Shown: in pieces, positions 4,735-28,134 of the stretch
Position numbering within the stretch: the stretch's first letter is position 1
Layout: the number at the start of each line of letters is the position of its first letter
From: PVC group bacterium
Lineage (GTDB): Bacteria; Omnitrophota; Gorgyraeia; B26-G9
DNA: 64,000 nucleotides
Reading direction: 5' to 3'
Assembly: GCA_024231215.1 (NCBI GenBank)
Contig: JAAEQR010000195.1
Span: 142,755 to 206,754 of the forward strand
The notes under the pieces: model-generated
What the model saw: the letters and a program-made list of their open reading frames with translations, nothing else
Database searches by the model: none
What the model was told of the DNA's origin: nothing
Program-made: the position numbers and the translations under genes

Positions 4735-5376
4735 ATGGAAAAACAGAACATAATCTTAGTTGGCGGCGGCGGACATTGCCGGGCTTGTATTGATGTTATT
4801 GAGGCGCAATTCAGATACAGAATTGTTGGGATAGTTGATGCCAAAGAAATGATGCATAAGAAGGTTTTAGGGTATGAAATCATTGGTTGCGAGCAGGATT
4901 TGCCGAAATTACTTGATGGTTGTGACAATTTTTTTATCACAGTCGGGCAGATTAAAACTGCCGATGTAAGGATAGAGAAGTTTGAATATTTGAAAAAATT
5001 AGGAGCGAAATTCCCGGTAATAATATCCCCTTCTGCCTATGTAGCTGATTCTGCTCGGATTAGTGAGGGGACAATAGTAATGCATGGTGCGGTTGTAAAT
5101 GCGCAGGCAGTGGTTGGGAAAAATTCCATTAGTAATACTGGAGCGATAATAGAACATGATGCAAGTATCGGTGATTATTGTCACATAGCAACCGGAGCAG
5201 TTGTGAATGGAGAATGTGTTATCGGAGAACGAGTGTTTATTGGGAGTAATAGTGTTATTTCAAATGGCGTTAATGTTGAGAGTAATGTTGTGATTGGTGC
5301 AGGTTCCACAGTTATTAAAAGCATTCTTGAGTCGGGAACATATGTGGGCAATCCAGCTAGAAAAGTGAATGGTTAA
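4735..5376 (+). CDS. NeuD/PglD-family sugar N-/O-acetyltransferase (N-terminal Rossmann-like domain plus left-handed beta-helix)
   Basis: MEKQNIILVGGGGHCRACIDVIE... N-terminal domain followed by hexapeptide repeats (IGDYCHIATGAVVNGECVIGERVFIGSNSVI). Confidence 0.75.
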   Translation: MEKQNIILVGGGGHCRACIDVIEAQFRYRIVGIVDAKEMMHKKVLGYEIIGCEQDLPKLLDGCDNFFITVGQIKTADVRIEKFEYLKKLGAKFPVIISPSAYVADSARISEGTIVMHGAVVNAQAVVGKNSISNTGAIIEHDASIGDYCHIATGAVVNGECVIGERVFIGSNSVISNGVNVESNVVIGAGSTVIKSILESGTYVGNPARKVNG

Positions 5377-5390
5377 TACTAAAGGAGTAA

Positions 5391-7504
<2,114 letters not shown>

Positions 7505-7557
7505 GCAAGAGAATCTTAATAATATAAAAGTGTATGTTTTATGCAGGAGGAGTTGTT

Positions 7558-8598
7558 ATGCAGAAAAATATTTTGGGTCCAGTAGATCAGTTTTATTTAA
7601 TTGGAGGAGGAAGGCTTCTTTTTGAATTATCTGTTTGGCTAAAGTCCCAAGGAATTAAGGGGAGCATTATTGCTGCTGAGCGTCATGCGAAAGAAGAAGT
7701 TCTTGAGGATGATAGGACCTTAGAGCAATTAGCGAAAGAAGCACAGATAGAGATACATATAATAGAAGATATAAATAATATTCCCGATAATTCTAAAAGG
7801 ATCAATTTTACGGATACAAGCTTTGCTCTTTCTCTAGGCGCTGCGTGGATATTTAAAGAGCAGACAATAGAGAAACTTTTTAAAAACAGGTTGTTTAATT
7901 TGCATGGGTCAAGGCTGCCTCAATATCGTGGTGGTGGGGGCTTTTCTTGGCAGATATTACGAGGCAATCGCTTGGGGTTTTGTCTGATCCATTTTATAGA
8001 TGGGGGTGTAGATACAGGCAATATTTTAAAATATGAGGAGTTCTTATATCCTGCAGATTGTAGGATACCTTTAGATTACGAAGAGTGTTATAGAAAAAAC
8101 AATCTAGAATTTATGCAGAAGCTATTTAAAAAATTAGTGAAAGGGTCCATAACATTTCAACCAGTAGCACAACAGGAATATTTTTCTGCTTATTGGCCTA
8201 GATTGCATTCGCCGACACATTCCTGGATTGACTGGTCAATGCCTTTAAATGAGTTAGATAGATTTATTTGTGCTTTTGATGATCCCTATTGTGGAGCGCA
8301 AACTACTAGTGACGGGTCTTTGGTTTACTTAAAAAAGACTATGACAGATAATAATGATGGTAATTTTCATCCATTTCAATATGGTTTAGTTTACCGAAAT
8401 AATGGGAAATGGCTTTCTGTTGCTGCAAATGGTGGGACTATTATTATCCAAAGTGTTACCGGCAAGGATGGACAGGATTTGATTAGATCGATTAAGTCGG
8501 GTGACAGATTTTTTACTCCTGTCGAAAAACTTGAAGAAGCTTGTAGTCAACGTATCTTTTATACCCCTAGGGGATTATGCGAAGGAAGGAAGCCTTAG
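7558..8598 (+). CDS. Formyltransferase-fold protein (Formyl_trans_N-like N-terminus plus C-terminal extension); candidate sugar N-formyl/acyl transferase
   Basis: FNLHGSRLPQYRGGGGFSWQILRGNRLGFCLIHFIDGGVDTGNI resembles the N.HxSLLPxYRG...HxxxxxxDxG core of Fmt/ArnA-like formyltransferases. AGGAGGA RBS before the ATG at 7558. Confidence 0.55.
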   Translation: MQKNILGPVDQFYLIGGGRLLFELSVWLKSQGIKGSIIAAERHAKEEVLEDDRTLEQLAKEAQIEIHIIEDINNIPDNSKRINFTDTSFALSLGAAWIFKEQTIEKLFKNRLFNLHGSRLPQYRGGGGFSWQILRGNRLGFCLIHFIDGGVDTGNILKYEEFLYPADCRIPLDYEECYRKNNLEFMQKLFKKLVKGSITFQPVAQQEYFSAYWPRLHSPTHSWIDWSMPLNELDRFICAFDDPYCGAQTTSDGSLVYLKKTMTDNNDGNFHPFQYGLVYRNNGKWLSVAANGGTIIIQSVTGKDGQDLIRSIKSGDRFFTPVEKLEEACSQRIFYTPRGLCEGRKP

Positions 8599-8623
8599 AG
8601 GCGTTCACAAGACGGAGGATATA

Positions 8624-9940
8624 ATGAATAATACTAAAAATCTTAATATGCAGGAGCGTGCAAAAAAACGTATGCCTGGGATGACGCAGCTTCTTTCTAA
8701 AAGGCCGGATCAGTTTTCTTTGGGTGTTTGGCCGGGATATTATAGTAAAGCAAAAGGTGCAGAGGTATGGGATCTGGATGGGAATAAATATTTGGATATG
8801 AGTATTGGTGGTATTGGAGCTAATATTCTTGGTTTTGCTGATGATGATGTTAACGCGGCGGTTTATAAGGCAATTAAAAATGGATCAAGTTCCTCTCTTA
8901 ATTCTCCGGAAGAAGTAGAGCTTTCTGAATTGCTTTGCGAGATTCATCCCTGGGCGGATAAGGTCAGATATGCGCGTACCGGGGGAGAGGCAATGGCTGT
9001 TGCAGTCAGAATTGCCAGGGCGTCTACTGGCCGGGATAAAGTCGCCTTTTGTGGTTACCATGGCTGGCATGATTGGTATCTTTCGGCTAATTTAGGCACT
9101 GAGAATGCATTAGGGGAACATCTTCTCTCTGGATTGGATCCTTTGGGAGTACCAAAAGGTCTTACTGGGACGTCTTTTCCGTTTACTTATAATAAAATAG
9201 AAGAGCTTAGGGATATTGTTGCCAAGCATGGCAATGAAATAGCGGCAATAGTTATGGAACCGATACGAGATGATGCGCCTGATGCTGATTTTGTTGACGA
9301 AGTACGGGCTATTGCCGATAAAATAAAAACGGTTTTGGTCATTGATGAAATTTCTGCCGGATTTCGTTTAAATACCGGAGGCTCACACCTGCTTTATAAT
9401 ATAAAACCGGATATAGCGGTTTTTTCAAAAGCCTTGGGTAATGGCTTTCCTGTAGCGGCTATTATCGGAAAAGAAAAAGTTATGGATGCTGCGCAAAAAA
9501 CATTTATAAGCAGCACAATGTGGACAGAGTGTATTGGACCAACAGCTGCATTGGCAACAATTAAAAAACATAAAGCATGTAATGTGGCTGAGCATCTTAT
9601 TTCTATTGGAAGTAGTGTTCAGGAAGGATGGAAAACACTTTCTAAAAAACATGGCCTAAAAATTCATGTAGGAGGAATTGCTCCTATTAGTCATTTTTCT
9701 TTTGAATATAATAATGCCATGGTTTTAAAAGCATTTTTTGTTCAGTTGATGCTAGAGAGAGGATTTTTGGCTTCTACTTTATTTTATTCTATGTATGCGC
9801 ATCAAACGGCGCATGTTAACAGTTATCTACAGTCAGTTGATGAGGTATTCGCTATTATTGCAAATGCAAATCAAAAAGGAGAAGTAGAGACTAAATTAAA
9901 AGGCAAACCAGCAACTGCCGGTTTTAAGCGGATTACATAG
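8624..9940 (+). CDS. Class III PLP aminotransferase, glutamate-1-semialdehyde aminomutase-like
   Basis: GSA-AT-like motifs (YARTGGEAMAVAVRIARASTGRDKVAFCGYHGWHDWYL; DEISAGFRL; FSKALGNGFPVAA). GGAGG RBS before the ATG at 8624. The upstream overlap of the track ORF is not supported. Confidence 0.7.
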   Translation: MNNTKNLNMQERAKKRMPGMTQLLSKRPDQFSLGVWPGYYSKAKGAEVWDLDGNKYLDMSIGGIGANILGFADDDVNAAVYKAIKNGSSSSLNSPEEVELSELLCEIHPWADKVRYARTGGEAMAVAVRIARASTGRDKVAFCGYHGWHDWYLSANLGTENALGEHLLSGLDPLGVPKGLTGTSFPFTYNKIEELRDIVAKHGNEIAAIVMEPIRDDAPDADFVDEVRAIADKIKTVLVIDEISAGFRLNTGGSHLLYNIKPDIAVFSKALGNGFPVAAIIGKEKVMDAAQKTFISSTMWTECIGPTAALATIKKHKACNVAEHLISIGSSVQEGWKTLSKKHGLKIHVGGIAPISHFSFEYNNAMVLKAFFVQLMLERGFLASTLFYSMYAHQTAHVNSYLQSVDEVFAIIANANQKGEVETKLKGKPATAGFKRIT

Positions 9941-9958
9941 AGTGAAGGGTTTTATTAT

Positions 9959-10864
9959 ATGAACGAATCTTCTTGTTCGATAGTTTTAGGTACCGTACAG
10001 CTTGGTTTTTCTTATGGGATAGCTAATAAAACAGGCCAGCCGGATCAGGAAACAGTCAATAACATTGTGCGTATAGCCTGGAAACAGGGTATAAGAGAGT
10101 TTGATACGGCTCAGGATTATGGAGTAAGCGAGCAGGTTCTTGGGATTGCTTTTGAAAAACTGGGTATATCATCGCAGGCAAGGGTTATCAGTAAGATAGA
10201 TCCTGAAATAGATCATTGTGATCGGGAAGTGATGGTTAAAGCAGTTGAAACATCTTTGACAAAAATGTGTATACCAAATCTTTTTGGCTTAATGCTACAC
10301 AAAGAAGAATTGTTGGAACAATGGTCAAAAGGATTAAAAGATATATTTCTTGGATTTAGAACTTCAGGAAAAGTTAAAAAACTGGGGGTGTCTGTGTATT
10401 CACCGGATAAAGCGGAAGAGGCTTTGAATCTAGAAGGGATTGATCTCGTACAGATTCCCTCCAATATCCTGGATAGAAGATTTGAAAGAAAAAATATTTT
10501 TGAGCTCGCTAATACGAAAAAAAAACAGATTTATATAAGAAGTGTTTTTTTACAGGGTCTTATCCTTATGGGAGAGGGAGAAATCCCTGACTATATGCTT
10601 TTCGCAAAACCAATTATTGATAAGATAAAGCAGCTTTCTTTAAAGTTGAATATGTCTAAACAGGAGCTGGCTTTATTATATTTAAAACAAAAAGCTCCTG
10701 ATGCAAAACTGGTTATCGGATCAGAAACAAGTCAACAGGTCATGAAAAATGTTGATTGCTGGAGGAAAGATGCTTCGAAGGAGCTGGTTTCATCTGTATC
10801 AGAGACCTTTGACCAGGTGGATGAAAAGATTCTTAATCCGTCGTTATGGAGAAGTAAATCATGA
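9959..10864 (+). CDS. Aldo/keto reductase family oxidoreductase
   Basis: LGTVQLGFSYGIANKTGQPDQETV...REFDTAQDYGVSEQVLG typical AKR N-terminus. About 300 aa. Confidence 0.7.
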   Translation: MNESSCSIVLGTVQLGFSYGIANKTGQPDQETVNNIVRIAWKQGIREFDTAQDYGVSEQVLGIAFEKLGISSQARVISKIDPEIDHCDREVMVKAVETSLTKMCIPNLFGLMLHKEELLEQWSKGLKDIFLGFRTSGKVKKLGVSVYSPDKAEEALNLEGIDLVQIPSNILDRRFERKNIFELANTKKKQIYIRSVFLQGLILMGEGEIPDYMLFAKPIIDKIKQLSLKLNMSKQELALLYLKQKAPDAKLVIGSETSQQVMKNVDCWRKDASKELVSSVSETFDQVDEKILNPSLWRSKS

Positions 10865-12654
10865 TAATTACGTTTATTCAGGCCAGAATGTCTTCAACCC
10901 GTTTTCCGGGTAAAGTGCTTAAACATATACTGGGCAAACCAATCCTGCAATTACAGATTGAGAGAGCCCGGGCCTGTAAAACCGTAGACAAAGTAGTTGT
11001 GCTTACCAGTATTTCTGAAGATGACCGGCCGATTGTGGATATGTGTAAAAAGATTAATGTGGATTTTTTTTGCGGCAGTCTGGAAAATGTTTTGGATAGA
11101 TTTTATCAGGCGGCAGTAAAGTTTAAACCGGATCATATTATTCGCCTGACAGGAGATTGCCCTTTAATTGATGCCAAAGTTATTGATGATATGGTTAAGC
11201 TCTATTTAAAAGAAGAAGGAGATTATGGTACCAATTGTGTTCCCGTAACTTATCCGGATGGATTAGATGCGGAGATTCTTACATTTAAAGCACTTCAAGT
11301 CGCGCATACTGAGGCAGTGCTTCCGTCTCATCTGGAGCATTTAAGCCTCTTTTTTGAGGAACAGTCGGAGCGTTTTAAAATAGTGAATTTGGCAAATAAT
11401 ACTGATCTTTCTTCGCTGCGCTGGACAGTAGACGAATCAGAGGATTTCGAATTTGTAAAGGCAATATTTGAGGAACTCTATCCTAAAAAACCCTTATTTT
11501 GCATGCAGGATGTTCTGGACTTGCTCAAAAGAAGGCCTGAGCTGATTTTGCTTAATAATCGTTTTAACAGGAATGAGGGGCTGTTTAAATCAAAAGAACA
11601 AGATAATGTTTTTCTTGAAGGGAAAACTTCAACTAATATGTCTAATACTGTTTCGATTTTATTCAGAGTGGATGTGTATGAAAAATTGGGGTTGGGACAC
11701 TTGTCCCGGTGCAGGTCATTAATGGCGGCTTTTTTGCATTACTCCGAATGTCAATTTGCGGTATTAAGCAATAATGAAACAGTGGTTAGAGAGTTTATCC
11801 CAAATATTGCGTTTGATTTTTACCATAACCGTAATGAACTGAAAAATACTAATTTTGATATTCTAATAGTGGATGTGCCTGATATCGCGTCTGGAGAAGA
11901 TGAAGATTTCCGGGGAGTGGCAAAATTAGTTGTTTGTATCGAGGATGCAGGCCGGGGCTTAAGTTATCAGAATATTCTTATTCGTCCGAATCTGCTTAAT
12001 TTACCGATAAGTCCTAATCTGAAAATAGCAAAGAATAATTACTGGTCGGGACGGGATTATATAATTTTGCATAATGATTTTGCGAAACAGGTTGTTCGTA
12101 ACGATGTGCCTAAAGAAAAAGCCGAAGAGTTACTGCTCTGTTTCGGCGGTAGTGACCCTTGTGGATTGACTTTACGTGCAATACCGCTGTTTAAAGAGCT
12201 TGAAGGTAATATTAGTTTTCATGTAGTGATTGGTCCAGCATTTTCATGGAAGGATGAGGTTTCTTCTATAATCAATGATGATGCTCGTTTTCATTTAAGC
12301 ATTAACTGCCAGAATATGGCAGAACATTTTTCTAAAGCGGATATCGCTTTAATTAGCGGAGGCACAATGCTCTATGAGGCTTGTGCGATGGGAACACCTG
12401 CGTTAGTTTTTTCGCAAAACCAAGAGCAGGAGATTGAAGCCAAAATATGCCAGGCAGCAGGGGCGGTTGCGAGCCTTGGTGTAAGTAAGTCTGTTTCAGA
12501 TGATAAAATTTTTAGTGCGGTAAAGAAAATTATCAGGGATACCGATTTGCGGTTGAATATGGCAAAAGCAGGGCCTAAAATTGTATCCTCTGACGGAGCC
12601 GCGCACATTGTGTCTAGTTTACTTAAATATATCAAAAAAGAGAGCATAAAATGA
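10861..12654 (+). CDS. Fusion protein: SpsF/FlmC-like cytidylyltransferase domain plus PseG/SpsG-like UDP-2,4-diacetamido-2,4,6-trideoxy-L-altropyranose hydrolase domain (CMP-nonulosonic acid activation)
   Basis: N-terminal IITFIQARMSSTRFPGKVLK...LTGDCPLID (CMP-KDO-synthetase-like nucleotidyltransferase fold). C-terminal LLCFGGSDPCGLT...ISGGTMLYEACAMGTPALV (GT28-C/PseG-like). Confidence 0.7.
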   Translation: MIITFIQARMSSTRFPGKVLKHILGKPILQLQIERARACKTVDKVVVLTSISEDDRPIVDMCKKINVDFFCGSLENVLDRFYQAAVKFKPDHIIRLTGDCPLIDAKVIDDMVKLYLKEEGDYGTNCVPVTYPDGLDAEILTFKALQVAHTEAVLPSHLEHLSLFFEEQSERFKIVNLANNTDLSSLRWTVDESEDFEFVKAIFEELYPKKPLFCMQDVLDLLKRRPELILLNNRFNRNEGLFKSKEQDNVFLEGKTSTNMSNTVSILFRVDVYEKLGLGHLSRCRSLMAAFLHYSECQFAVLSNNETVVREFIPNIAFDFYHNRNELKNTNFDILIVDVPDIASGEDEDFRGVAKLVVCIEDAGRGLSYQNILIRPNLLNLPISPNLKIAKNNYWSGRDYIILHNDFAKQVVRNDVPKEKAEELLLCFGGSDPCGLTLRAIPLFKELEGNISFHVVIGPAFSWKDEVSSIINDDARFHLSINCQNMAEHFSKADIALISGGTMLYEACAMGTPALVFSQNQEQEIEAKICQAAGAVASLGVSKSVSDDKIFSAVKKIIRDTDLRLNMAKAGPKIVSSDGAAHIVSSLLKYIKKESIK

Positions 12655-13346
12655 TTGTCGTGATTATGCAACCGACATATCTGTCCTGGTCGGGTTATTT
12701 TGACATGATGGATAATGCTGATGTGTTTGTCCTCCTGGATACAGTGCAGTTTGAAAAACAGGCATGGCAGCAGCGTAATCGAATTAAAATCACAGAAGGT
12801 CAGTCTAAATGGCTAACTGTTCCGGTAGTGCAAAATCTGGGGCAGAAAATAAGCGATGTCCAAATCAAAAACTCAGAACCCTGGAGCAGGAAACACTGGG
12901 GAACAATAGAGCAATTTTATAAACAAACAGAGTATTGGAAAACATATAAAGAAGATTTGGCGCAGATATATTTAAAGGATTGGGATAAGCTTGCTGAGTT
13001 AAATATCGCTTTGATAAATTTCCTTAAAGAAAAATTTAATATTTCAACTAAGCTGCTCAGAGCATCGCAGCTACAGGTTTCAGGTGAAAAAGTCAGGTTA
13101 TTAGTAGACATTTGCCATGATTTAAAAGCAGATGTCTATATGTCAACACCGCGCGCTGCTGATTATCTAGAGCATAACAATATTTTTGCTGAAGAGGGGA
13201 TTGCTTTGAAGTACCATCAGTACGAACCTTCTATATATAGGCAGCTGCATGGAAAGTTTTTGCCCTATATGTCAGCACTTGATCTACTGTTAAATGAAGG
13301 GCCGAGAAGTCTTGAGATTATCCGCTCCGGGCGGATTAGAGGTTGA
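12651..13346 (+). CDS. WbqC-like family protein
   Basis: MIVVIMQPTYLSWSGYFDMMDNADVFVLLDTVQFEK... matches the conserved WbqC-family N-terminus (MQPTYLPW.GYFDL). Confidence 0.8.
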   Translation: MIVVIMQPTYLSWSGYFDMMDNADVFVLLDTVQFEKQAWQQRNRIKITEGQSKWLTVPVVQNLGQKISDVQIKNSEPWSRKHWGTIEQFYKQTEYWKTYKEDLAQIYLKDWDKLAELNIALINFLKEKFNISTKLLRASQLQVSGEKVRLLVDICHDLKADVYMSTPRAADYLEHNNIFAEEGIALKYHQYEPSIYRQLHGKFLPYMSALDLLLNEGPRSLEIIRSGRIRG

Positions 13347-13374
13347 ACAGCCTGCAAATATTAAAAAGGAAAAA

Positions 13375-14076
13375 ATGAACAAAAGAACATACATTGTAGC
13401 GACTATAAGAGAATGGAATATTTCTGCTTTCAAAGATGTTATAAGTAAGTATCCAGGTACCTGGCATTTGATAACAGATAAAAAAGAATTAACAATTAAA
13501 AGAATAAAACAGATAAAACCGCGGTATATTTTCTTCCCTCATTGGAGTTTTAAGGTGCCGAATGTGATAACAGAGTTTAGCGAATGTGTTTGTTTCCATG
13601 AGACAGAGGTGCCTTTTGGACGCGGGGGCAGCCCCATACAAAATCTGATTATGCGGGGATATGAAAAGACAAAAATATCCGCTTTAAAAATGACAAAAAA
13701 ATTAGATGCAGGACCTGTGTATCTAAGAAGAGATTTAGGATTAGATGGACTGGCGGAAGAAATTTTCATAAGGTCTTCAAAAATAATAGCTGGAATGATA
13801 AAAGAGATAATTCATAAAGAACCGTTACCTAAGGCACAGAAAGGAGAAATCGTGGTGTTTAAAAGGCGTACCCCGGAACAAAGTGTTATGACTAAAAAGC
13901 TGAAGAGTTTAGATGAAGTGTTTGATTTTTTACGGATGCTAGATGTCGCGGAATATCCCCGGGCATTTTTTGAGCGTGATGGATTAAGGTATGAGTTTTC
14001 CAGGCCGGCGCTTAGAACAAGCGCTATTGAAGCCGATGTTCGCATTACAAAGTGTAAAAACAGGAGCAAGAAATGA
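13375..14076 (+). CDS. Formyltransferase-fold protein (second copy, short form), typical partner of WbqC-like genes
   Basis: PHWSFKVPNVI...CFHETEVPFGRGGSPIQNLIMRG...KKLDAGPVY resembles the Formyl_trans_N core. The internal ATG at 13375 avoids overlapping wbqC. Confidence 0.55.
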   Translation: MNKRTYIVATIREWNISAFKDVISKYPGTWHLITDKKELTIKRIKQIKPRYIFFPHWSFKVPNVITEFSECVCFHETEVPFGRGGSPIQNLIMRGYEKTKISALKMTKKLDAGPVYLRRDLGLDGLAEEIFIRSSKIIAGMIKEIIHKEPLPKAQKGEIVVFKRRTPEQSVMTKKLKSLDEVFDFLRMLDVAEYPRAFFERDGLRYEFSRPALRTSAIEADVRITKCKNRSKK

Positions 14077-14771
14077 TCTTAGAAAATTATAATAAAATAT
14101 TAACGTTTTTCGCTCATCCTGATGATGAGACCTTGGCCGCCGGAGCTACTATTTCCAGGCTTAGCAGTTTAGGCGCAAAGGTGCATATAGCTATTCCTGC
14201 AACAGGTATTCACGGGCGTCGAAATTCATCCTCAAGGCAGTCAAGAAATAATGAACTTGCTAAATTAAGAAAAGATTGTCAAAAAGCCTGTGCCGCGTTG
14301 GGTGTTGATAATAAGCATATTTATCTGGGAGAATTTGCCGATAATGAAATGGACAAGAGTTCGTTGCTTGAAGTTATTAACTGGTTTGAAGACATAATTG
14401 CTAAGGTTAAGCCGGATTTGATTCTTACTCATCATCGGTATTGCACGAACATAGATCATCAGTACTCTCATCAGGCCGCGATAGTTGCTTCAAGGCCGGC
14501 GGCAAACAGTCATATTCCGATATTATGCGGAGAGGTTCCCAGCAGCACAGGATATCTAAAGCCTGTTCAATGGGAGCCGAATTTATATGTTGAAGTAACC
14601 GAAAAGAATGTAGAAGCAAAAATCTGCGCGATGCAGTTATATGAAGGGGAGGCTCGTCCGGATCCTCATCCCCGGTCACCGGAGGTATTAAAGGCTTTGG
14701 CAAAAGTGCGCGGTTCTGAATCCGGATTTATGTTCGCGGAAGCATTTATGATCCAGCGCATATTTAGCTGA
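14073..14771 (+). CDS. PIG-L/LmbE-family N-acetyl-sugar deacetylase
   Basis: ILTFFAHPDDETLAAGATISRL...LTHHRYCTNIDH (HPDDE plus H..D.H zinc-hydrolase motifs). Confidence 0.8.
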   Translation: MILENYNKILTFFAHPDDETLAAGATISRLSSLGAKVHIAIPATGIHGRRNSSSRQSRNNELAKLRKDCQKACAALGVDNKHIYLGEFADNEMDKSSLLEVINWFEDIIAKVKPDLILTHHRYCTNIDHQYSHQAAIVASRPAANSHIPILCGEVPSSTGYLKPVQWEPNLYVEVTEKNVEAKICAMQLYEGEARPDPHPRSPEVLKALAKVRGSESGFMFAEAFMIQRIFS

Positions 14772-14790
14772 GAGAAAGCACAAAAAATTC

Positions 14791-15864
14791 ATGTATATAA
14801 CTATAAACAATAGAAAGATTGGGAAAGGTAAGACTGTATATATTATTGCTGAGTTGTCGGCTAATCATAATCAAAGCATAGATAAAGCTATAAAGCTGAT
14901 CGAAGTAGCCAAGCAGGCAGGTGCTGATGCCGTAAAAATACAGACTTATACCGCTGATACCATGACCATTGATTCTGATAAAGAATGGTTTCAGATCAAA
15001 GGGACAATTTGGGAAGGGAATAATCTATATAAATTATATCAGGAGGCATTTACTCCTTGGGAATGGCAGTCACAGTTAAAACAAGTTAGCGAGAAGCTGG
15101 GGCTTGATTTCTTTTCTACCCCGTTTGATGTTACGGCAGTGGATTTTTTGCAGGGATTGAATGTCCCGGCATATAAGATTGCTTCATTTGAGCTTGTGGA
15201 TATCCCGCTGTTGAAAAAGATTGCGATTACTGGTAAGCCGGTGATTATGTCTACAGGAATGGCGACTCTAGAAGAAATAGACGAGGCAGTACAGACGCTT
15301 GTCTTAGCGGGTAATAAACAGCTGGTATTGCTCAAATGCACAAGCGCATATCCGGCAGCTGCCCAAGAGATGAACTTAAATGCCATTAGCTATATTTCAG
15401 AGAAATACAAAGTACCGGTTGGTCTTTCCGATCATACACTGGGCAGCGCTGTTGCTGTGGCTGCGGTTGCGTTAGGGGCATGTATTATTGAAAAACATCT
15501 CACCTTGACCCGCAAAGATCCGGGGCCTGATGCGACGTTTTCAATGGAACCCGCGGAATTTAAATCTATGGTTGATGATATAAGAATCGTAGAAAAGGCC
15601 TTGGGGAAAGTATCTTTTGAAGTGACGGAAAAGGAGAAAGAAAATCGTGTATTCCGCCGGTCATTGTTTGTAGTTAAAGATATTAAAAAAGGCGAGACTT
15701 TTTCTGCAAAAAATATACGTTCCATACGGCCGGGGCATGGATTGCACACAAGATATTTAGAGCAAATTTTAGACAAAAAAGCAGTCAAAGACATAGAAAA
15801 AGGGACGCCGCTGAACTGGAATTTAGTGGAAGGGTGTAATCGGGATGAGAAAGGCAGAGCATAA
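14791..15864 (+). CDS. pseI: Pseudaminic acid synthase (NeuB family, with C-terminal SAF/antifreeze-like domain)
   Basis: KTVYIIAELSANHNQSIDKAIKLIEVAKQAGADAVKIQTY...PAYKIASFEL...STGMATLEEIDEAV...GLSDHTLG. The C-terminal SAF domain is FSAKNIRSIRPGHGL. Confidence 0.85.
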   Translation: MYITINNRKIGKGKTVYIIAELSANHNQSIDKAIKLIEVAKQAGADAVKIQTYTADTMTIDSDKEWFQIKGTIWEGNNLYKLYQEAFTPWEWQSQLKQVSEKLGLDFFSTPFDVTAVDFLQGLNVPAYKIASFELVDIPLLKKIAITGKPVIMSTGMATLEEIDEAVQTLVLAGNKQLVLLKCTSAYPAAAQEMNLNAISYISEKYKVPVGLSDHTLGSAVAVAAVALGACIIEKHLTLTRKDPGPDATFSMEPAEFKSMVDDIRIVEKALGKVSFEVTEKEKENRVFRRSLFVVKDIKKGETFSAKNIRSIRPGHGLHTRYLEQILDKKAVKDIEKGTPLNWNLVEGCNRDEKGRA

Positions 15865-16869
15865 ATGATAAATGTTAATACACGAAACATCTCTCCGGAG
15901 GTTGCAGGTACGGATAAGCAACTGGGGCTGGTATTTAATGATAAAAAGTGGATTGAATACCGTAGAAAATGGGATGAAAACCCTAAACAGGGAATTGTGG
16001 AAAAGGTTCCATTGCAGATTGATCTATTTGCGGTTGATATATGCAATTTAAAATGCCCGATGTGTCCAAGGCAGGCATTTATCCCCGGAAAAGGATATAT
16101 GGATACAAAATCAATAAAGAGAATCCTGGATCAGGGGGCAGAGCATGGATTATGTGCCTTTAATTTTTCCGGATTGGGTGAGCCGACCTTACATCCTGAT
16201 GTGTTGGAAATTATCAGATATGCAAAGGAAAAAGGTGTTGTTGATGTGAATATGCATACAAATGGAACGCGTTTAGGCGCTGAATTCAATAAAAAGCTGC
16301 TTGAATCAGGGCTGGACAGGCTTATTGTTTCGCTTGATAGTGCGGATAAACAAAGATATGAGAGTATTCGTATAGGAGCAAGCTTTGAAAAGGTTTATGC
16401 CGGGGTTGAGGATTTGATTAAACAACGAAATGACCATAAGAGTGCAAGATTGCATATTAAAGCTAACTTTATAGAAATGGATGAAAAAGATGATACTGAA
16501 AAAAATAAGTTTATAACGTATTGGAAGGGCAAGGTCGATAGGATCGCAGTGTTGCGTTATCTTGATTGTAAGGATGTGGAGAGGCTTTTTTGGAAAGAAA
16601 ACTATGTTCAGGATAATGATTTTTGTTGTCCTGAACTATGGCGCAGATTGATAATCCTGAGTGATGGCACGGCAACTCTTTGCCCCAGAGATATGCAAAA
16701 GCATCATATAATCGGAAATGTCAACGACAAAACCATTTCAGAGATATGGACAGGGGAAAAGATTCAAAAGATTAGAGATATGCACCGGAAAGGTTGTTTT
16801 AAAGAGCTGGGTTTTTGTGCGGATTGTCCTGATTCTTATGATAAAAAGAAAGATGAGCAGAAAAAATGA
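15865..16869 (+). CDS. Radical SAM enzyme with C-terminal SPASM-type auxiliary cluster domain (paralog 1)
   Basis: CNLKCPMCP CxxxCxxC motif. C-terminal CCPELW...SDGTATLCP...GCFKELGFCADCP cysteine pattern typical of SPASM. Confidence 0.75.
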   Translation: MINVNTRNISPEVAGTDKQLGLVFNDKKWIEYRRKWDENPKQGIVEKVPLQIDLFAVDICNLKCPMCPRQAFIPGKGYMDTKSIKRILDQGAEHGLCAFNFSGLGEPTLHPDVLEIIRYAKEKGVVDVNMHTNGTRLGAEFNKKLLESGLDRLIVSLDSADKQRYESIRIGASFEKVYAGVEDLIKQRNDHKSARLHIKANFIEMDEKDDTEKNKFITYWKGKVDRIAVLRYLDCKDVERLFWKENYVQDNDFCCPELWRRLIILSDGTATLCPRDMQKHHIIGNVNDKTISEIWTGEKIQKIRDMHRKGCFKELGFCADCPDSYDKKKDEQKK

Positions 16870-17879
16870 AAAGGAATTGGAAAATAAAATCAGGGGTTTT
16901 AACAAAGATAAAAAATCTTTATAAAAAAGGTGGATTAAATCCCAGGTTTTATGCGTATCGCTATTGTTTCAATAGCTATCCTGATAATTTCAAGATCAGC
17001 AAATATCCATTTGATATAATTGCGGAGGCTTCTAATGTTTGCAACCTGAGATGCTCCATGTGCTTTCAGGTCGATGATGAACTTCCGGTTCGGACAACGA
17101 CAAAAGTTCCTTTCATGAAGATGAATTTGTTTAAAAAAATTACTGATGAATGTGCGAAATATAAGGTACCTGCTTTAAAATTAAGTTGGCGGGGTGAGCC
17201 AATGTTAAATGAAAACTTCACAGAAATGATCAGATATGCAAAATCCAAAGGGATCTTAGAGGTTACGTCTTTAACTAATGCGACATTAATGCATGAAAAT
17301 ATTTGCCGGGAAATTGTATCTGCAAAAATGGATCAGATTGTTATTTCCATAGATGGTTTTACAAAAGAGACATATGAAAAAATCAGGATTGGTGCTGATT
17401 ATGACGTTGTGTGTAATAATATAAAAAATTTACTTAAAATAAGAGGAAAGTCAAACAAGCCTTTTATTAGATTGCAATATACGGAATCTGATATAAATAA
17501 GCATGAAACAGAGAGATTTTATCATTATTGGAAAGATAAGGTCGATGAAATAACTGTGTCGTATTGTCAGGATTTTGGCTCTACTGAGAAGATTGATCCC
17601 GAGGATATTCCGGCACATAGCTTTGTTTGCAAACAGCCTTTTCAGCGCTTGGTTATTATGACTGACGGGACTGTTTGTGTTTGCGCTACAGATGTTATGG
17701 GTGAAATTTCAATAGGCAATATCCAGGACTCAAAGCTTATAGATTTATGGAATTGTTCTAAAATTAATGAGCTTCGCCAACAGCATAAGGCAGGGAAATA
17801 TCAGCATAATCCAATGTGTCGTATTTGCGTGCATAATGTATTCATGGCCAACAAAAATGCGGGTCTTTCTGTTAAATAA
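16866..17879 (+). CDS. Radical SAM enzyme with C-terminal SPASM-type domain (paralog 2)
   Basis: CNLRCSMC motif. C-terminal CKQPFQRLVIMTDGTVCVCATDVMGEI...CSKIN...CRICVH. Similar length and architecture to the upstream gene. ATGA start/stop overlap. Confidence 0.75.
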   Translation: MKRNWKIKSGVLTKIKNLYKKGGLNPRFYAYRYCFNSYPDNFKISKYPFDIIAEASNVCNLRCSMCFQVDDELPVRTTTKVPFMKMNLFKKITDECAKYKVPALKLSWRGEPMLNENFTEMIRYAKSKGILEVTSLTNATLMHENICREIVSAKMDQIVISIDGFTKETYEKIRIGADYDVVCNNIKNLLKIRGKSNKPFIRLQYTESDINKHETERFYHYWKDKVDEITVSYCQDFGSTEKIDPEDIPAHSFVCKQPFQRLVIMTDGTVCVCATDVMGEISIGNIQDSKLIDLWNCSKINELRQQHKAGKYQHNPMCRICVHNVFMANKNAGLSVK

Positions 17880-17917
17880 TCTTAATGTAAGAAATTAAAT
17901 CAGGCAATGACCAATAA

Positions 17918-19747
17918 ATGGATAATAGGCTTTATATTTTAGATAAGAAATATCGAAATGTATTTATAACTCAGAATCGGGATAGTTGGAATGTTTGTCC
18001 TTTTGAATTTGATAAAGATAAAGATTTGGTTCTTTCTTTCGACTTTGCAGTTGTTAATGAAGTCAGACAGACAGGGGGGCAGGCTTATTATATTGATCAT
18101 CTGGTAAATAGCCAATTGATGGAAGAATATAATCACAAAATGTATGAATTTTTTGCTAAATGGCATAAAAATTTATTAGGCAAGGATATTTTTAGCTATA
18201 AAGGTATGGATGTTGCGAGTGCCTTTAGGATCGAAATATGGAATGATCTTACTTTTTATATGCGGATATTAGTCAATCTACATGAATTGTTCAAAAAAAT
18301 CAAGCCTGAGAATGTGTATGTGGGAATAGAGAATCAAATAGTTAGGGAGGTTATTGGGGGGCTTAATATTAAGGTTGTTTTCTGGAATGCGCCAGAAAAC
18401 AAAAACAGTACTGAATATTATTTCCCGATTTTTAGATGGATGGATGAAGCTCTGCACCCTGCTGATTTTAAACACAAGGTTAGGTTGTTTGTTTTTAAGA
18501 TATTTGGATCAATATCAAGTTTTATTAAAAAAATCAAGTTTAATAAAAATAAAAAGCAGATATATGTTGAGTGGTATCATCCGACAAATGACATAATTAG
18601 AGAGTTGAAAAGGGAAAATAAGGTTGAAATAGTTCGCAGTGGGTTTAATTGTATCCAGGATATGTTTAACAGTGTGTATTTACCGGCAGCTAGTTTCTCG
18701 GGCAGCAGATGCTATAAGCTTGAGACAGAGAAAATGCTTAAAAATTTTGATAAGGAAAAATGCGCGACATTAAGTATTGATGACATTGATATGAGTAATG
18801 AGATTTATAAGTTGATCATTAAAAGAGTTTCACCTTTAATCCCTAGATCTTTACTGACTGTAGACATTATAATGAAGTTTTTTGCAAAAAAAAAGCTGAG
18901 TCTTATGATTACGGTTGCAAGTATTGGGCTTATAAATAGATTGATGATTAATTACTGCATCAAGGCAGATATACCTGTGTATATGATTATTAACGGCTGG
19001 CTGGGCAATTCTTTTCTTGATGAAGCTAAAGATGGTACATGGATAAATTCTTATAGTGAATCCGTTAAGAAAAATTATTTTAAGGGTATGAAAAATGTTA
19101 TTTGTTTAGGAGATCCTAGGATGGATAAATATGTTAATTGTCTTAAAAAAAAATATAGTGACTATGAAAATCCGACTATTGGTATCGGGGCAGCCGGATT
19201 TACTAATGTTGATTTGAATTGTTATGTAGCAATTGAATGGGAGTTTTTAAATGATATAATGCAGGTTTGTAAAAAAATAATAACCTCTGGCAAAAAGATG
19301 AGTATTATAATAAAAGTTCGTCAAAACGGTTATATACAGCAATATCGGAATTTTCTGGACGAGTATTATTCTGATGTACCAGTCGTTCTTGAGGATTCGG
19401 TCTCGATAGAAGAAGTATATAAAAAAGCTGATTTTTTTATATCCATTTATTCTCAAAGCTTATTCGAGGCATCCTGTTATGGATTGCCGGTTTTGTATTA
19501 TAAAAATGATACTCAGTATTTTGACCCTCCCTTTGACGGTAATTCTGAGCTTATTACGGCGATGACTCCGGATGATCTCAGGCAAAAGATCGAGGCTTTT
19601 TACAATAAAGATGCAATGTATGATAAATTTAAAGAAAAGAAAGTAATGGAAAAGTATATAGGATTGTTAGATGGACAAAATCTAAAGCGAAATATGGATT
19701 TTATATATTCTTTTATAGAAGATAAAAAACAGGCTCAGGCAAATTGA
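17918..19747 (+). CDS. Hypothetical 609-aa protein; C-terminal half resembles GT-B-like TagF/KpsS-type transferases (candidate nonulosonic-acid or glycerol-phosphate transferase)
   Basis: No N-terminal match recognised. C-terminal ...ADFFISIYSQSLFEASCYGLPVLYYKNDTQYFDPPFDG... resembles the TagF-like / Capsule_synth ...DYSS..FD.A.L.KP.IFY.PD.. region. Confidence 0.3.
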   Translation: MDNRLYILDKKYRNVFITQNRDSWNVCPFEFDKDKDLVLSFDFAVVNEVRQTGGQAYYIDHLVNSQLMEEYNHKMYEFFAKWHKNLLGKDIFSYKGMDVASAFRIEIWNDLTFYMRILVNLHELFKKIKPENVYVGIENQIVREVIGGLNIKVVFWNAPENKNSTEYYFPIFRWMDEALHPADFKHKVRLFVFKIFGSISSFIKKIKFNKNKKQIYVEWYHPTNDIIRELKRENKVEIVRSGFNCIQDMFNSVYLPAASFSGSRCYKLETEKMLKNFDKEKCATLSIDDIDMSNEIYKLIIKRVSPLIPRSLLTVDIIMKFFAKKKLSLMITVASIGLINRLMINYCIKADIPVYMIINGWLGNSFLDEAKDGTWINSYSESVKKNYFKGMKNVICLGDPRMDKYVNCLKKKYSDYENPTIGIGAAGFTNVDLNCYVAIEWEFLNDIMQVCKKIITSGKKMSIIIKVRQNGYIQQYRNFLDEYYSDVPVVLEDSVSIEEVYKKADFFISIYSQSLFEASCYGLPVLYYKNDTQYFDPPFDGNSELITAMTPDDLRQKIEAFYNKDAMYDKFKEKKVMEKYIGLLDGQNLKRNMDFIYSFIEDKKQAQAN

Positions 19748-19786
19748 ACGCTTTGAGTCGAAAACTACAATGTAAAGTGTTGATTT

Positions 19787-21307
19787 ATGTCAATTAAAAA
19801 AAAATCAGTTTTTAAAATTCTTACAAATATTGTGACTTTGCTTGTCGGGTTAGTGACTCAAGGCATTATACCGCGTACTTTAGGGCCGGCAGCATATGGT
19901 AATTTTTCTTTTCTCACTAATTTTTTCTTTTCTATATGCGGTTTTCTGAATTTAAATTCATCAACTGTTTTTTTTACTAAATTATCACAGAGACCTAAAG
20001 CAAAAGGACTGATTCGTTTTTATATGCATTTTCTGGCTTTCATTGCGCTTATAATTGCCATTTTTTTGTCCGGAAGCATTGTCTTTGGTCTAAAATCTGT
20101 TTTTTGGCCAGGGCAGCGTACTGTATTTATAATTTTAGCTGCGATTTTGGGTGTTTTCACATTTTATGATATGGTTTTTAAAGATATGTGTGATGCATAT
20201 GGGATTACTATAAAGGCTGAGCTTATTAAAATAGCTCTTAAGGTTATTGGATTGGGTCTAATCTTATTTTTGTTTTGGAAAAAGAGTCTTAATTTAGGAA
20301 CTTATTTTTCTTATCACATATTTATTCTTTTGTCAACGATAGGTTTTCTTATTTTCCTTATACATAAAAGCGGCCACTCATTGTTCAGCGGATTTATCGC
20401 TAAAAAAGATGAGTTTGAACCTTATTATAAAGAGTTTTCTAAAGTATGCTTTCCTTTATTCTTTTTTTTGTCTCTAGCTCTAATTGGACAGATATTTGAC
20501 CGCTGGTTTTTGCAGAAGTTTTCCGGAAGTGTTGATCAAGGGTATTATTCTTTTGCTTTTCAGGTAGGCAATCTTTGCATGCTTTTCACCAGTGCTATTA
20601 TGCCTCTTGTTTTACGGGAACAGTCGATACATTTCGGAAATATGGATTTTGAAAAATTAAGAAATGTTTTCTCACGTTCTATAAGCATTTTGGTAGCTTT
20701 AACTGCTTTTATATGTTGTTTTCTCGCTGTGGAATCTCAGACAGTTATTAATATCTTTGCTGGAAAGGCTTATTCTGCTGCTTTTGTACCCATGGTATTA
20801 ATGTGTTTGTTCCCAATTCATCGTACATACGGACAGTTGAATGGGAATTTCTTTTTTGCATCAGATAGAGTTCATATCTATCGAAATATAGGTATCGTAT
20901 TCACGCTTTTGGGAGTTGTTTTTACTTTTTTCTTACTGGGACCTCAAAAATATGGAGGGTTTAATCTGGGAGCAAATGGACTTTCTTTTAAAATGATGGG
21001 ATTGCAGGTGATCAGCGTTAATGTGCAGCTTTGGTTTAATGCAAAATACTTAAAATATTCTTTTAAAACACTTTTTTTGAATCAGATCGGGACGATAATT
21101 GTTTTTCTGGGCTTGTCGGGAATATCATCTGGCTTTGCAAGAGCGATATTCCCAAATTTAGCTCCAGTCATCCATTTTTGTTTAAGCGGGACAGTATACG
21201 TTATAATATGTTTTGTGGTTTTTAACTGTTGGCCGGAAACTATGGCTTTAAAGAAAACTGATGTTAATCAGTTAAATATATTTATCAAAGAGAAACTTGG
21301 CAAGTAA
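19787..21307 (+). CDS. MOP-superfamily polysaccharide flippase (Wzx-like), multi-pass membrane protein
   Basis: 506 aa, about 12-14 hydrophobic segments. N-terminal ...ILTNIVTLLVGLVTQGIIPRTLGPAAYGNFSF... typical of Wzx / polysaccharide biosynthesis protein family. Confidence 0.65.
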   Translation: MSIKKKSVFKILTNIVTLLVGLVTQGIIPRTLGPAAYGNFSFLTNFFFSICGFLNLNSSTVFFTKLSQRPKAKGLIRFYMHFLAFIALIIAIFLSGSIVFGLKSVFWPGQRTVFIILAAILGVFTFYDMVFKDMCDAYGITIKAELIKIALKVIGLGLILFLFWKKSLNLGTYFSYHIFILLSTIGFLIFLIHKSGHSLFSGFIAKKDEFEPYYKEFSKVCFPLFFFLSLALIGQIFDRWFLQKFSGSVDQGYYSFAFQVGNLCMLFTSAIMPLVLREQSIHFGNMDFEKLRNVFSRSISILVALTAFICCFLAVESQTVINIFAGKAYSAAFVPMVLMCLFPIHRTYGQLNGNFFFASDRVHIYRNIGIVFTLLGVVFTFFLLGPQKYGGFNLGANGLSFKMMGLQVISVNVQLWFNAKYLKYSFKTLFLNQIGTIIVFLGLSGISSGFARAIFPNLAPVIHFCLSGTVYVIICFVVFNCWPETMALKKTDVNQLNIFIKEKLGK

Positions 21308-24077: not shown

Positions 24078-24089
24078 TAGGAGGTTATT

Positions 24090-24314: not shown

Positions 24315-24344
24315 ATACAGAAGGATAATAGCAGTCTGGGATAT

Positions 24345-25253: not shown

Positions 25254-25266
25254 AGGTTCATTTATT

Positions 25267-26706: not shown

Positions 26707-26732
26707 TGAATAAACAAATCCAAAGGCGCTGA

Positions 26733-27326: not shown

Positions 27327-27334
27327 AATAGATT

Positions 27335-28132: not shown

Positions 28133-28134
28133 AT

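Follow-up and report, generated by a model that had tools for sequence, protein, structure and literature searches.

We analysed a 64,000-nucleotide stretch of DNA, here called the window, in which two radical SAM genes lie on the forward strand directly behind pseI. The product of pseI (14791..15864) was identified as a pseudaminic acid synthase by TIGR03586 (503.6 bits against a cut-off of 340). It is followed by rSAM1 (15865..16869), which encodes a Twitch-domain radical SAM enzyme of 334 residues, and by rSAM2 (16866..17879), which encodes a paralogous Twitch-domain enzyme of 337 residues. Both ORF products exceeded the Pfam gathering scores for Radical_SAM (PF04055; 76.5 bits for rSAM1 and 58.6 for rSAM2 against 29.5) and for SPASM (49.6 and 46.7 bits against 21.5). 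The two proteins are 31% identical over 303 residues (E = 8e-51) and matched each other with a probability of 100% and E = 4e-74 in a profile-profile comparison. The tandem of paralogous radical SAM ORFs that a preliminary description of this sequence had placed after pseI is therefore real. The CX3CX2C motifs it had listed were located as CNLKCPMC in rSAM1 (16042..16065; residues 60-67, with C60, C64 and C67) and as CNLRCSMC in rSAM2 (17040..17063; residues 59-66, with C59, C63 and C66), and they are conserved in orthologues. Of the ATGA overlaps it had claimed at both junctions, the one between rSAM1 and rSAM2 is genuine (16866..16869) and suggests that the translation of the two genes is coupled, whereas the TAA stop of pseI simply abuts the ATG of rSAM1 with a gap of 0 nt.

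The pair lies in a run of forward-strand genes in which no intergenic gap from nt 5376 to 21307 is longer than 39 nt. The upstream part of the operon (4735..14771) encodes, as judged by NCBIfam and Pfam, a NeuD-type acetyltransferase (4735-5376), PseB (5394-6374), PseC (6371-7504), an Fmt-like protein (7534-8598), a class-III aminotransferase, AT3 (8624 as the likely, revised start codon, to 9940), a PseF-PseG fusion (10861-12654), WbqC (12651-13346), Fmt-C2 (likely start revised to 13375, end 14076) and a PIG-L/LmbE deacetylase (14073-14771). An aldo-keto reductase, AKR (9959-10864), was labelled after the Pfam family to which its orthologues in syntenic loci belong. The downstream genes of the same transcription unit (17918..21307) are u609 (17918-19747), which encodes a soluble protein without a family and is conserved after the pair in the orthologous locus L003, and u506 (19787-21307), which encodes a 12-TM Wzx-like flippase. 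The solved relatives of AT3 include aminoglycoside C-6' sugar aminotransferases, and WbqC has a BshC-like ligase fold. Searches of PDB sequences returned no match for WbqC, either with the single sequence or with a profile, or for the aldo-keto reductase, and papers that mention 'WbqC' did so in genome annotations or dealt with unrelated subjects. No Rfam family matched the window, and a scan of the window for promoters and terminators showed no overall enrichment over shuffles.

When compared with the canonical pathways for pseudaminic acid (Pse; PseB/C/H/G/I/F) and legionaminic acid (Leg; LegB/C/H/G/I/F plus PtmE), the window holds the full Pse set plus the radical SAM pair. The NeuD-type acetyltransferase, PseB, PseC, PseF-PseG and PseI complete this set without rSAM1 and rSAM2. 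To our knowledge, neither canonical pathway has a radical SAM step. The idea that a radical SAM protein replaces a missing canonical step was rejected, since the Pse set is complete in the window and the Leg set is complete in a related locus (L085).

The sequence of rSAM1 is 100% identical to that of a protein from a 'PVC group bacterium' MAG. Orthologues were found at 43-79% identity for rSAM1 and at 40-81% for rSAM2 with E-values reaching 1e-190, so that chance is excluded for the pair. The CX3CX2C motif of rSAM1 has no exception in 22 orthologues or 93 family members. In both orthologue sets, the SAM-binding GE motif and all cluster ligands are invariant, which for rSAM2 amounts to seven cysteines plus the GE. 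Each protein is predicted to be competent, with one SAM-binding [4Fe-4S] cluster and one four-cysteine auxiliary [4Fe-4S] cluster. About 59 residues precede the cluster motif, and their model contains a single short strand and a single helix (the AF2 model of rSAM1 has a pLDDT of 90); this N-terminal helix is family-specific, and in 87-88% of family members it bears a conserved Tyr-Arg pair (Y32/R33). A recent tandem duplication was rejected as the origin of the pair, given the low identity of the copies and their position in different deep clades of a neighbour-joining tree without support values.

The C-terminal region carries only four invariant cysteines (C255, C273, C318 and C321), with the pattern CX12GX4C...CX2C in both orthologue sets and in the 93 family members. 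They span 16627..16827 in rSAM1, where they were assigned by conservation and by alignment with BtrN, and 17628..17828 in rSAM2, where they were assigned by conservation. A Twitch domain is a truncated SPASM domain that has the ligands for a single auxiliary cluster, as exemplified by BtrN, MoaA and SkfB, and this is why the Pfam SPASM model still matches both proteins. The SPASM motif itself has seven cysteines, CX9-15GX4C-gap-CX2CX5CX3C-gap-C, and holds two auxiliary clusters (PMC6231123). This seven-cysteine motif is absent from the orthologue alignments of rSAM1 and rSAM2, in which four cysteines are conserved instead. A full SPASM domain with two auxiliary clusters was rejected on this basis, and what had at first been described as SPASM auxiliary-cluster cysteine arrays corresponds to the Twitch pattern. 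As judged from the sequences, the C-terminal domain of both proteins is of the Twitch type with ligands for one auxiliary cluster. The model NF033640, 'twitch domain-containing radical SAM', was matched in part.

HMM classification had been proposed as a check in the preliminary description. Both proteins passed the Pfam models given above, and none of the curated NCBIfam radical SAM families listed reached its cut-off with rSAM1 or rSAM2. The best matches were to TIGR04317 (119.7 against a cut-off of 380) and to a spiro-SPASM model (99.2 against 250), and the BlsE model TIGR04466 scored 43 bits against 400. The anSME model TIGR03942 scored 44.8 bits with rSAM2 against a cut-off of 349.45 and was absent among the 25 best families listed for rSAM1. 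Because every listed NCBIfam match was far below its cut-off, membership in the anSME family or another named radical SAM family was rejected.

The closest solved relative of the pair is BtrN (profile E = 1.6e-21). BtrN is the 2-deoxy-scyllo-inosamine dehydrogenase of butirosin biosynthesis (PDB 4M7T/4M7S), an aminocyclitol dehydrogenase and the founding Twitch radical SAM enzyme. The four C-terminal cysteines of rSAM1 align in order with C169, C187, C232 and C235 of BtrN, which is covered structurally over 205 of 214 residues at 2.4 A. However, BtrN is only 18-21% identical to the window proteins, which are about 85 residues longer, have the family-specific N-terminal helix and occur as a conserved paralogous pair; the context of BtrN is an aminoglycoside pathway (2-deoxystreptamine/butirosin) rather than a nonulosonic-acid operon. 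By analogy, rSAM1 and rSAM2 may work like BtrN without being members of the BtrN family. BlsE, DesII and SpeY are radical SAM enzymes of antibiotic pathways whose substrates are nucleotide sugars or aminocyclitols and whose reactions are decarboxylation, deamination or dioxane-bridge chemistry; unlike the pair, they have no link to nonulosonic acids. HygY, described as a Twitch enzyme, and NeoN are radical SAM aminoglycoside epimerases, and PMC10991966 states that a single hydrogen-donor cysteine, Cys249 in NeoN, sets whether the outcome is that of a dehydrogenase or an epimerase. Compared by description, they resemble the presumed role of the pair in that their radical SAM chemistry is directed at carbinol centres of sugars, and neither was among the sequence or fold matches of the pair. 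In contrast to these epimerases, the orthologues of rSAM1 and rSAM2 have no invariant non-ligand cysteine (maximum conservation 0.82-0.83 in the two sets), so an obligate cysteine hydrogen donor of the NeoN/HygY type (PMC10991966) is not part of these enzymes.

We propose here a nonulosonic-acid-locus-associated family of Twitch radical SAM proteins, with seven conserved cysteines and about 330 residues, to which rSAM1 and rSAM2 belong. The family comprises at least 646 clusters (50% identity, E <= 1e-30), occurs in bacteria and archaea, and has 555 relatives in GTDB species genomes. The neighbourhoods of the best 80 of these 555 were surveyed by simple ORF calling, with cluster labels taken from single representatives. 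Within these best 80, nonulosonic-acid marker genes were present in 34 of the 37 GTDB loci that had at least 8 kb on both sides, and two of the three marker-less loci had NeuB-like tblastn matches. The 41 loci of this survey whose flanks reached at least 8 kb in both directions contained CTP_transf_3 in 36 cases, NeuB in 33, an SDR dehydratase in 32, DegT in 25 and PtmE in 24. The commonest immediate neighbour among the same best 80 was a CMP-sugar synthetase gene, with CTP_transf_3 next to the family member at 33 of 79 loci, PtmE at 17 and NeuB at 15. The preliminary description had proposed such a survey and had named orthologues lying consistently outside glycan loci as evidence against its reading; the opposite was seen, with linkage to CTP_transf_3 and NeuB.

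Individual loci point in the same direction. L085 holds the entire canonical Leg cluster, with the radical SAM gene as its sole extra gene, and other family members lie elsewhere in full Leg sets. Some members are fused to NeuB and SAF (P0296) or to CTP_transf_3 (P0246), others to 2-Hacid_dh (P0218, P0304) or to a methyltransferase (P0235, P0309), and three of the fusions were confirmed on their contigs. Exceptions to the nonulosonic-acid linkage are L050 and the H. bilis loci L074/L075; in L024, no LegB-like SDR was visible within 10 kb. Searches of the literature for radical SAM together with nonulosonic, pseudaminic or legionaminic acid, O-antigen, NeuB or the glycosylation of flagellin returned nothing relevant and no paper on these enzymes. 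We take the family to be an uncharacterised one that is dedicated to nonulosonic-acid loci.

Since this uncharacterised family is found almost only beside nonulosonic-acid genes, the pair probably performs a radical step on a sugar and not on a peptide. A carbohydrate substrate had been suggested in the preliminary description, and the placement of orthologues in nonulosonic-acid loci, the NeuB and CTP_transf_3 fusions and the relationship to BtrN all support it. We consider it reasonably likely that rSAM1 and rSAM2 are small-molecule tailoring enzymes of pseudaminic or legionaminic acid biosynthesis, with BtrN-like C-H oxidation as the probable reaction. The pair would be transcribed together with pseI and probably coupled to it in translation, and it would act on a small-molecule pathway intermediate, most likely the nine-carbon acid produced by PseI or its CMP-activated form. 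SAM would be cleaved reductively to a 5'-deoxyadenosyl radical, which would remove a hydrogen from a carbon of the sugar. The auxiliary cluster, with all its ligands in place, would then accept the electron as it does in BtrN, so that a secondary alcohol, possibly the C4-OH or C8-OH of Pse, would become a ketone. This ketone might be aminated by the class-III aminotransferase or reduced with stereo-inversion by the aldo-keto reductase. The two paralogues, which come from different deep clades, may act on two different positions or intermediates. Within 10 kb of family members, AT3 was present in 10 of 41 loci and AKR in about five (best 80 of 555), and ketone-processing partners are thus not general to the family. 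Loci that encode a GFO oxidoreductase together with AT3 already have an NAD-dependent route to a ketone, which counts against this reading.

The pair might instead consist of radical epimerases or other redox-neutral enzymes, in which a protein residue returns the hydrogen to the opposite face in the manner of NeoN and HygY to give C4-, C5-, C7- or C8-epimers of Pse or Leg, the two copies inverting two centres. The genomic and architectural evidence is equal for this and for a dehydrogenase, and Twitch sugar epimerases exist, with HygY and the Cys249 donor of NeoN cited in PMC10991966. Compact Leg clusters such as L085, without an extra ketone-processing enzyme, fit a self-contained reaction. 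As to a donor, 74% of the wider family has an extra cysteine beside the second auxiliary ligand, but rSAM1 has P274 and rSAM2 has A274 there, and no non-ligand cysteine is invariant in either orthologue set. Conserved tyrosines (Y165 at 95%, Y32 and Y119 at 88%) could donate the hydrogen in an epimerase, which counts against a dehydrogenase. Epimerisation would, however, leave the co-conserved AT3 and AKR without an obvious role linked to the pair, and we regard it as unlikely.

The overlapping arrangement of rSAM1 and rSAM2 was also found at 71, 65, 52 and 43% identity, with overlaps of 4-8 nt in L001/L002, L086, L087 and L088, and 32 entries, matched on the length of the longest contig, are common to the two orthologue lists. 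rSAM1 and rSAM2 are inherited together, as one unit. The cassette order of the window recurs in L001/L002, and in L003 and L086 the order of these genes differs slightly; WbqC always accompanies the pair, and L088 has the pair without AT3 and without AKR. The strict co-inheritance, the start/stop overlap kept down to 43% identity and the shared entries would suit an obligate rSAM1/rSAM2 heteromer for one reaction, or a pair in which one subunit is a scaffold or electron conduit, in place of two successive radical steps, and such an assembly is compatible with dehydrogenase, epimerase or N-acyl-substituent chemistry. Against it, every cluster ligand and the SAM-binding GE are invariant in both proteins, the wider family is mostly single-copy (57 of 75 GTDB loci; best 80 of 555), and one locus (L006) encodes a 60% identical rSAM1 orthologue without an adjacent rSAM2. 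An obligate heteromer thus appears quite unlikely.

The BshC-like ligase fold of WbqC raises another possibility, namely that an N-aminoacyl substituent, rather than the backbone of the sugar, is the substrate. After removal of an N-acetyl group by PIG-L, WbqC would ligate an amino acid or an acyl group, and this N-linked group would then be modified by the radical SAM proteins; examples are C-alpha epimerisation, desaturation and cross-linking to the sugar. Peptide-type SPASM/Twitch chemistry would in this way take place on a glycan-borne residue. The ligase activity of WbqC is, however, a fold-based inference. Within 10 kb of family members, WbqC was found in 8 and PIG-L in 11 of 41 loci, as opposed to 80-88% for NeuB and CTP_transf_3 (best 80 of 555). 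In addition, clusters such as L085 offer only N-acetyl groups, and the fusions are to NeuB and CTP_transf_3 with none to WbqC. Modification of an N-acyl substituent is therefore decidedly improbable.

A peptide or protein substrate is the least credible. The preliminary description had reported no precursor-peptide gene nearby and had considered that a conserved leader/core peptide ORF would speak against its reading. We found no small, mostly intergenic ORF near the pair in the window, where the intergenic gaps are short as noted above, and no precursor-peptide gene was called beside the pair in the syntenic loci for which gene tables were used, L001/L002, L086, L087 and L088, in which 12-38 nt separate it from the preceding and 13-155 nt from the following gene. 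SPASM maturases (SuiB, SkfB, ChlB, CteB, anSME, PqqE) have an RRE or a peptide substrate and mostly seven cysteines with two auxiliary clusters (PMC6231123), unlike the window pair with its four cysteines, no peptide gene and, by Pfam, no PqqD/RRE domain in either protein. That the pair comprises RiPP or protein maturases (sactisynthase/streptide-like, or anSME-like for formylglycine) lying in a glycan locus by chance is extremely improbable: the Pfam SPASM domain, the presence of ChlB, SuiB, SkfB and anSME among the top fold matches and a sulfatase gene in one orthologous locus (L088) favour it, but RiPP maturation was rejected for want of a precursor ORF, of room for one and of an RRE, the residues N-terminal to the cluster motif being few, and only one auxiliary cluster is possible, the listed RiPP-maturase models all scored far below their cut-offs, as did TIGR03942 with rSAM2 (44.8 bits against 349), and the linkage to NeuB and CTP_transf_3, including direct fusions, crosses phyla.

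More tentatively than for the tailoring role itself, we suggest that the family may stand for a radical step in the biosynthesis of nonulosonic acids that needs no oxygen and had gone unrecognised. It would create a new structural class of sialic-acid-like sugars (e.g. keto-, extra-amino-, epimeric or side-chain-cross-linked Pse/Leg), shown on flagellins and polysaccharides across hundreds of lineages, Campylobacterota among them, that are mostly anaerobes or microaerophiles, and it would occur twice in the window by way of the dedicated pair. Pse and Leg acids decorate flagella, capsules and LPS and matter for motility, immune evasion and phage recognition. Since the family has at least 646 clusters and lies in, and is sometimes fused to, core pathway genes, widespread sugar structures may be missing from pathway models and glycan databases. 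If the proposal is true, the Twitch subclass would gain a new class of small-molecule substrate, and the diverged paralogues would be a natural system for examining how specificity is set. The hypothesis is directly testable, as Pse and Leg intermediates are enzymatically accessible, and culturable carriers of the family include Campylobacter fetus, Sulfurospirillum, Acetobacterium (for example A. wieringae), Azospirillum (for example A. soli) and Neomoorella stamsii. In C. fetus, radical SAM genes of the 'MoaA/NifB/PqqE/SkfB family', possible relatives of the present family, are among the phase-variable genes (PMC6321876), and adjoining locus tags in the same list are those of methyltransferases and a formyltransferase-domain protein (PMC6321876).

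The two radical SAM ORFs with CxxxCxxC motifs reported in the preliminary description are both present on the + strand, rSAM1 at 15865-16869 (334 aa, CNLKCPMC at residues 60-67) and rSAM2 at 16866-17879 (337 aa, CNLRCSMC at residues 59-66). The window belongs to an uncultivated 'PVC group bacterium' MAG, whose NCBI entries match both proteins at 100 % identity. In Pfam, Radical_SAM and SPASM each score above the gathering threshold in either protein; every NCBIfam model scored them far below its own cut-off. They share 31 % identity over 303 residues (E = 8e-51; profile-profile E = 4e-74). The gene 5' of rSAM1 was identified as pseI (503.6 bits vs a cut-off of 340). ATGA overlaps had been described at both junctions, and this holds for rSAM1/rSAM2 but not for pseI/rSAM1, where the TAA stop directly abuts the ATG. 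N-terminal of the cluster motif are 59 residues, modelled as a short strand followed by a helix, and the helix bears a Tyr-Arg pair kept in 87-88 % of the family.

The C-terminal cysteine arrays had been read as SPASM-type and are better described as Twitch. Across 22 rSAM1 orthologues (40-79 % identity), cysteine invariance is limited to C60, C64, C67, C255, C273, C318 and C321, the last four being the C-terminal ones. In 23 rSAM2 orthologues these seven are likewise invariant, and in a 93-member family alignment reaching down to about 25 % identity they are kept at 99-100 %. Any further cysteine is conserved at 83 % or less. SPASM domains contain seven cysteines and two clusters, and the Twitch domain is a truncated form with one cluster (PMC6231123). 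Since the CX12GX4C...CX2C pattern of the pair retains only the first part of the SPASM motif, rSAM1 and rSAM2 are assigned by sequence to the Twitch-domain radical SAM enzymes. The best solved relative in a profile search with the rSAM1 orthologues was BtrN (E = 1.6e-21), followed by MoaA (1e-12), and BtrN C169, C187, C232 and C235 line up with the four invariant C-terminal cysteines of the pair.

The operon is preceded by a 557-nt gap, the sole large one, which contains a sigma-70-type TTGACA-16 nt-TATAAT site (4315-4342, 12/12 consensus matches), although promoter-like sites across the region equal the shuffled expectation with no enrichment. It encodes a NeuD-type acetyltransferase (4735-5376), PseB (5394-6374), PseC (6371-7504), an Fmt-like protein (7534-8598), the class-III aminotransferase AT3 (listed as 8501-9940), an aldo-keto reductase, AKR (9959-10864; named after the Pfam assignment of syntenic orthologues), a PseF-PseG fusion (10861-12654), WbqC (12651-13346), the second Fmt-like protein FmtC2 (listed as 13294-14076) and a PIG-L/LmbE deacetylase (14073-14771). 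PseI, rSAM1, rSAM2, a 609-aa protein and a 12-TM Wzx-like flippase follow in that order. The listed AT3 and FmtC2 starts are probably too early, because starts at M42 (nt 8624, 438 aa) and M28 (nt 13375, 233 aa), respectively, give lengths equal to those of the orthologues; the revised starts also abolish apparent overlaps of 98 nt and 53 nt. As the neighbours of the pair make up the full canonical set for pseudaminic acid (Pse), the Pse pathway is complete without the radical enzymes. The soluble 609-aa protein directly 3' of the pair (17918-19747) matches no Pfam or NCBIfam family and could serve as transferase for the modified sugar. It recurs in the same position at 61 % identity in a deltaproteobacterial MAG (L003), and a 581-aa unannotated gene, alike in position, takes its slot in locus L086. 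The reported lack of a precursor-peptide gene was borne out, with no mostly intergenic small ORF by the pair and no gap above 39 nt between genes from nt 5376 to 21307. Pfam likewise found no RRE/PqqD domain in either protein.

Farther 3' lie genes for an FkbH protein, an ACP, methyltransferases, a MaoC/SDR protein, a B12-radical SAM enzyme, GT2 and GT1, a set that identifies a surface-polysaccharide locus. Within this stretch is an acyl-tailoring block (22296-29622) with the FkbH-domain protein (300 bits, over its cut-off), the acyl carrier protein (24090-24314, 74 aa, the only real small ORF of the region), a methyltransferase, a MaoC-dehydratase/SDR fusion, a hexapeptide acyltransferase, a second methyltransferase and the B12-binding radical SAM enzyme (28129-29622). 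From the content of this block, the glycan may carry a methylated N- or O-acyl group derived from glyceryl-ACP. At 34465-35736 there is a gene of the sugar C-methyltransferase type. Every large ORF in the window (1-64000) is on the + strand save 57050-57670, GC skew is positive throughout, and Rfam at gathering thresholds gave no match in the whole window.

An Omnitrophota genome (L001/L002) shows the whole PseB-to-rSAM2 cassette in synteny, and synteny is largely kept in L003 and L086 (65 % identity). Since the rSAM1/rSAM2 overlap of 4-8 nt is retained at 71, 65, 52 and 43 % identity, and the two orthologue lists coincide in 32 longest-contig sizes, the pair is inherited as a unit. A recent duplication is ruled out by a neighbor-joining tree (no support values) that places the two copies in different deep clades; the partnership is an old one.

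To survey the wider family, GTDB was scanned with one genome per species. Of the 555 relatives found, the best 80 loci by similarity to rSAM1 were kept, five more were added by exact protein lookup, and ORFs were clustered and the clusters labelled by Pfam. With ORFs called mechanically, labels taken from single representatives and many loci being MAG contigs, the 41 loci flanked by 8 kb or more on each side contained within 10 kb CTP_transf_3 (CMP-nonulosonate synthetase type; 36), NeuB (33), SDR dehydratase (32), DegT aminotransferase (25), PtmE (24) and NeuC/LegG (19). In agreement with the glycan-locus setting first proposed, 34 of the 37 GTDB loci among these 41 had at least one nonulosonic-acid marker, and two of the three marker-less ones gave NeuB-like tblastn matches. 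Over 79 loci, the genes most often directly adjacent were CTP_transf_3 (33), PtmE (17) and NeuB (15). A flagellin glycosylation setting is indicated in 14 of 75 loci, which have Maf or flagellin genes, and some relatives sit in Wzx-dependent polysaccharide loci. Ten Campylobacterota loci (L033, L034, L037, L039, L040, L042, L044, L045, L048 and L053) share a PtmE-rSAM-CMPtr-rSAM module, several with tandem flagellin genes and a Maf glycosyltransferase alongside; this is a second, independent pairing of two family members, with the CMP-transferase gene between them. In L085 the rSAM gene is the sole addition to a complete canonical legionaminic acid cluster adjoining flaG-fliD-fliS. True exceptions are few: a GT1/Wza/Wzz polysaccharide locus (L050) and the Helicobacter bilis copies (L074 3824-4777, L075 10064-10924; 31 % identity), which have no nonulosonic-acid genes nearby, the L074 copy having two methyl-accepting chemotaxis protein genes and some ORFs without annotation next to it. 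In Pseudobacteroides cellulosolvens (L024, about 7000-12000), NeuC, PtmE, an acetyltransferase, NeuB, CMP transferase, rSAM and DegT lie together with no LegB-like 4,6-dehydratase seen within 10 kb; there rSAM and DegT could install a 4-amino group without 6-deoxygenation.

An exhaustive search of 1.84 billion representatives returned 646 clusters at E <= 1e-30, and the family includes natural fusions of rSAM to NeuB and SAF (P0296), CTP_transf_3 (P0246), D-2-hydroxyacid dehydrogenase (P0218, P0304) and methyltransferase (P0235, P0309). Three rSAM fusions were upheld by a contig check, one adjoining DegT, NeuC-like and NeuB genes. In orthologous loci CTP_transf_3 is itself fused to NeuB in L088 (3768-5540, 590 aa) and to a class-III aminotransferase in L087 (303-2333, 676 aa), the latter suggesting that AT3 works on, or adjacent to, a cytidylylated intermediate. 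Given the linkage, the fusions, the BtrN kinship and the lack of a peptide gene or RRE, we consider a small-molecule role of the pair in nonulosonic-acid biosynthesis highly probable. Since family members are fused and adjacent to both NeuB and CMP-transferase, the substrate is probably the free nine-carbon acid, or else its CMP derivative.

We tentatively propose, by analogy with BtrN, that the rSAM enzymes would carry out a two-electron oxidation of a secondary alcohol to a ketone, where the electron acceptor would be the fully ligated auxiliary cluster. Processing of the ketone would fall to AT3 or AKR in the window and to DegT or the fused 2-hydroxyacid dehydrogenase elsewhere. Solved relatives of AT3 include aminoglycoside C-6' aminotransferases. 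This oxidation, although the favoured chemistry, is less likely than not, because AT3 and AKR are missing from most family loci and from L088, because similarity is a notoriously poor guide to function within the subclass (PMC6231123), and because, as described for HygY and NeoN (PMC10991966), a single hydrogen-donor residue separates epimerase from dehydrogenase outcomes. Less probably, the radical enzymes modify a glycan-borne residue instead of the sugar skeleton. The best matches of the PIG-L protein are BshB2 and BshB1, and in bacillithiol synthesis a sugar amine is deacetylated by BshB before cysteine is added by BshC (PMC5790435); on this resemblance, the cassette may remove the N-acetyl group of a Pse precursor and attach an amino acid in its place, a group that the two Fmt-like proteins could then formylate. 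A glycan-borne target would be compatible with such a route. A cysteine-dependent epimerase is weakly argued against by the lack of an invariant free cysteine in the window proteins, although tyrosines are conserved in the family and an additional cysteine directly follows C273, the second auxiliary ligand, in 74 % of the 93-member alignment. That column holds P274 in rSAM1 and A274 in rSAM2; the extra cysteine could be a fifth ligand, or a hydrogen donor dividing epimerase-like from dehydrogenase-like clades.

Our literature search found no paper tying radical SAM enzymes to nonulosonic-acid biosynthesis. What comes closest is a list of phase-variable genes in Campylobacter fetus; it includes radical SAM genes annotated as 'MoaA/NifB/PqqE/SkfB family', with methyltransferases and a formyltransferase-domain protein at adjoining locus tags (PMC6321876). 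Twitch radical SAM enzymes that act on carbohydrates are already known as a kind; the pathway, substrate class, family size and conserved paralogous pair are new. Related glycan loci seem to employ radical chemistry repeatedly: L083 (17190-19002) encodes a protein of ~1,496 aa with Radical_SAM, SPASM and methyltransferase domains, and L091 (14990-17008) a 672-aa HAD-hydrolase/Radical_SAM fusion.
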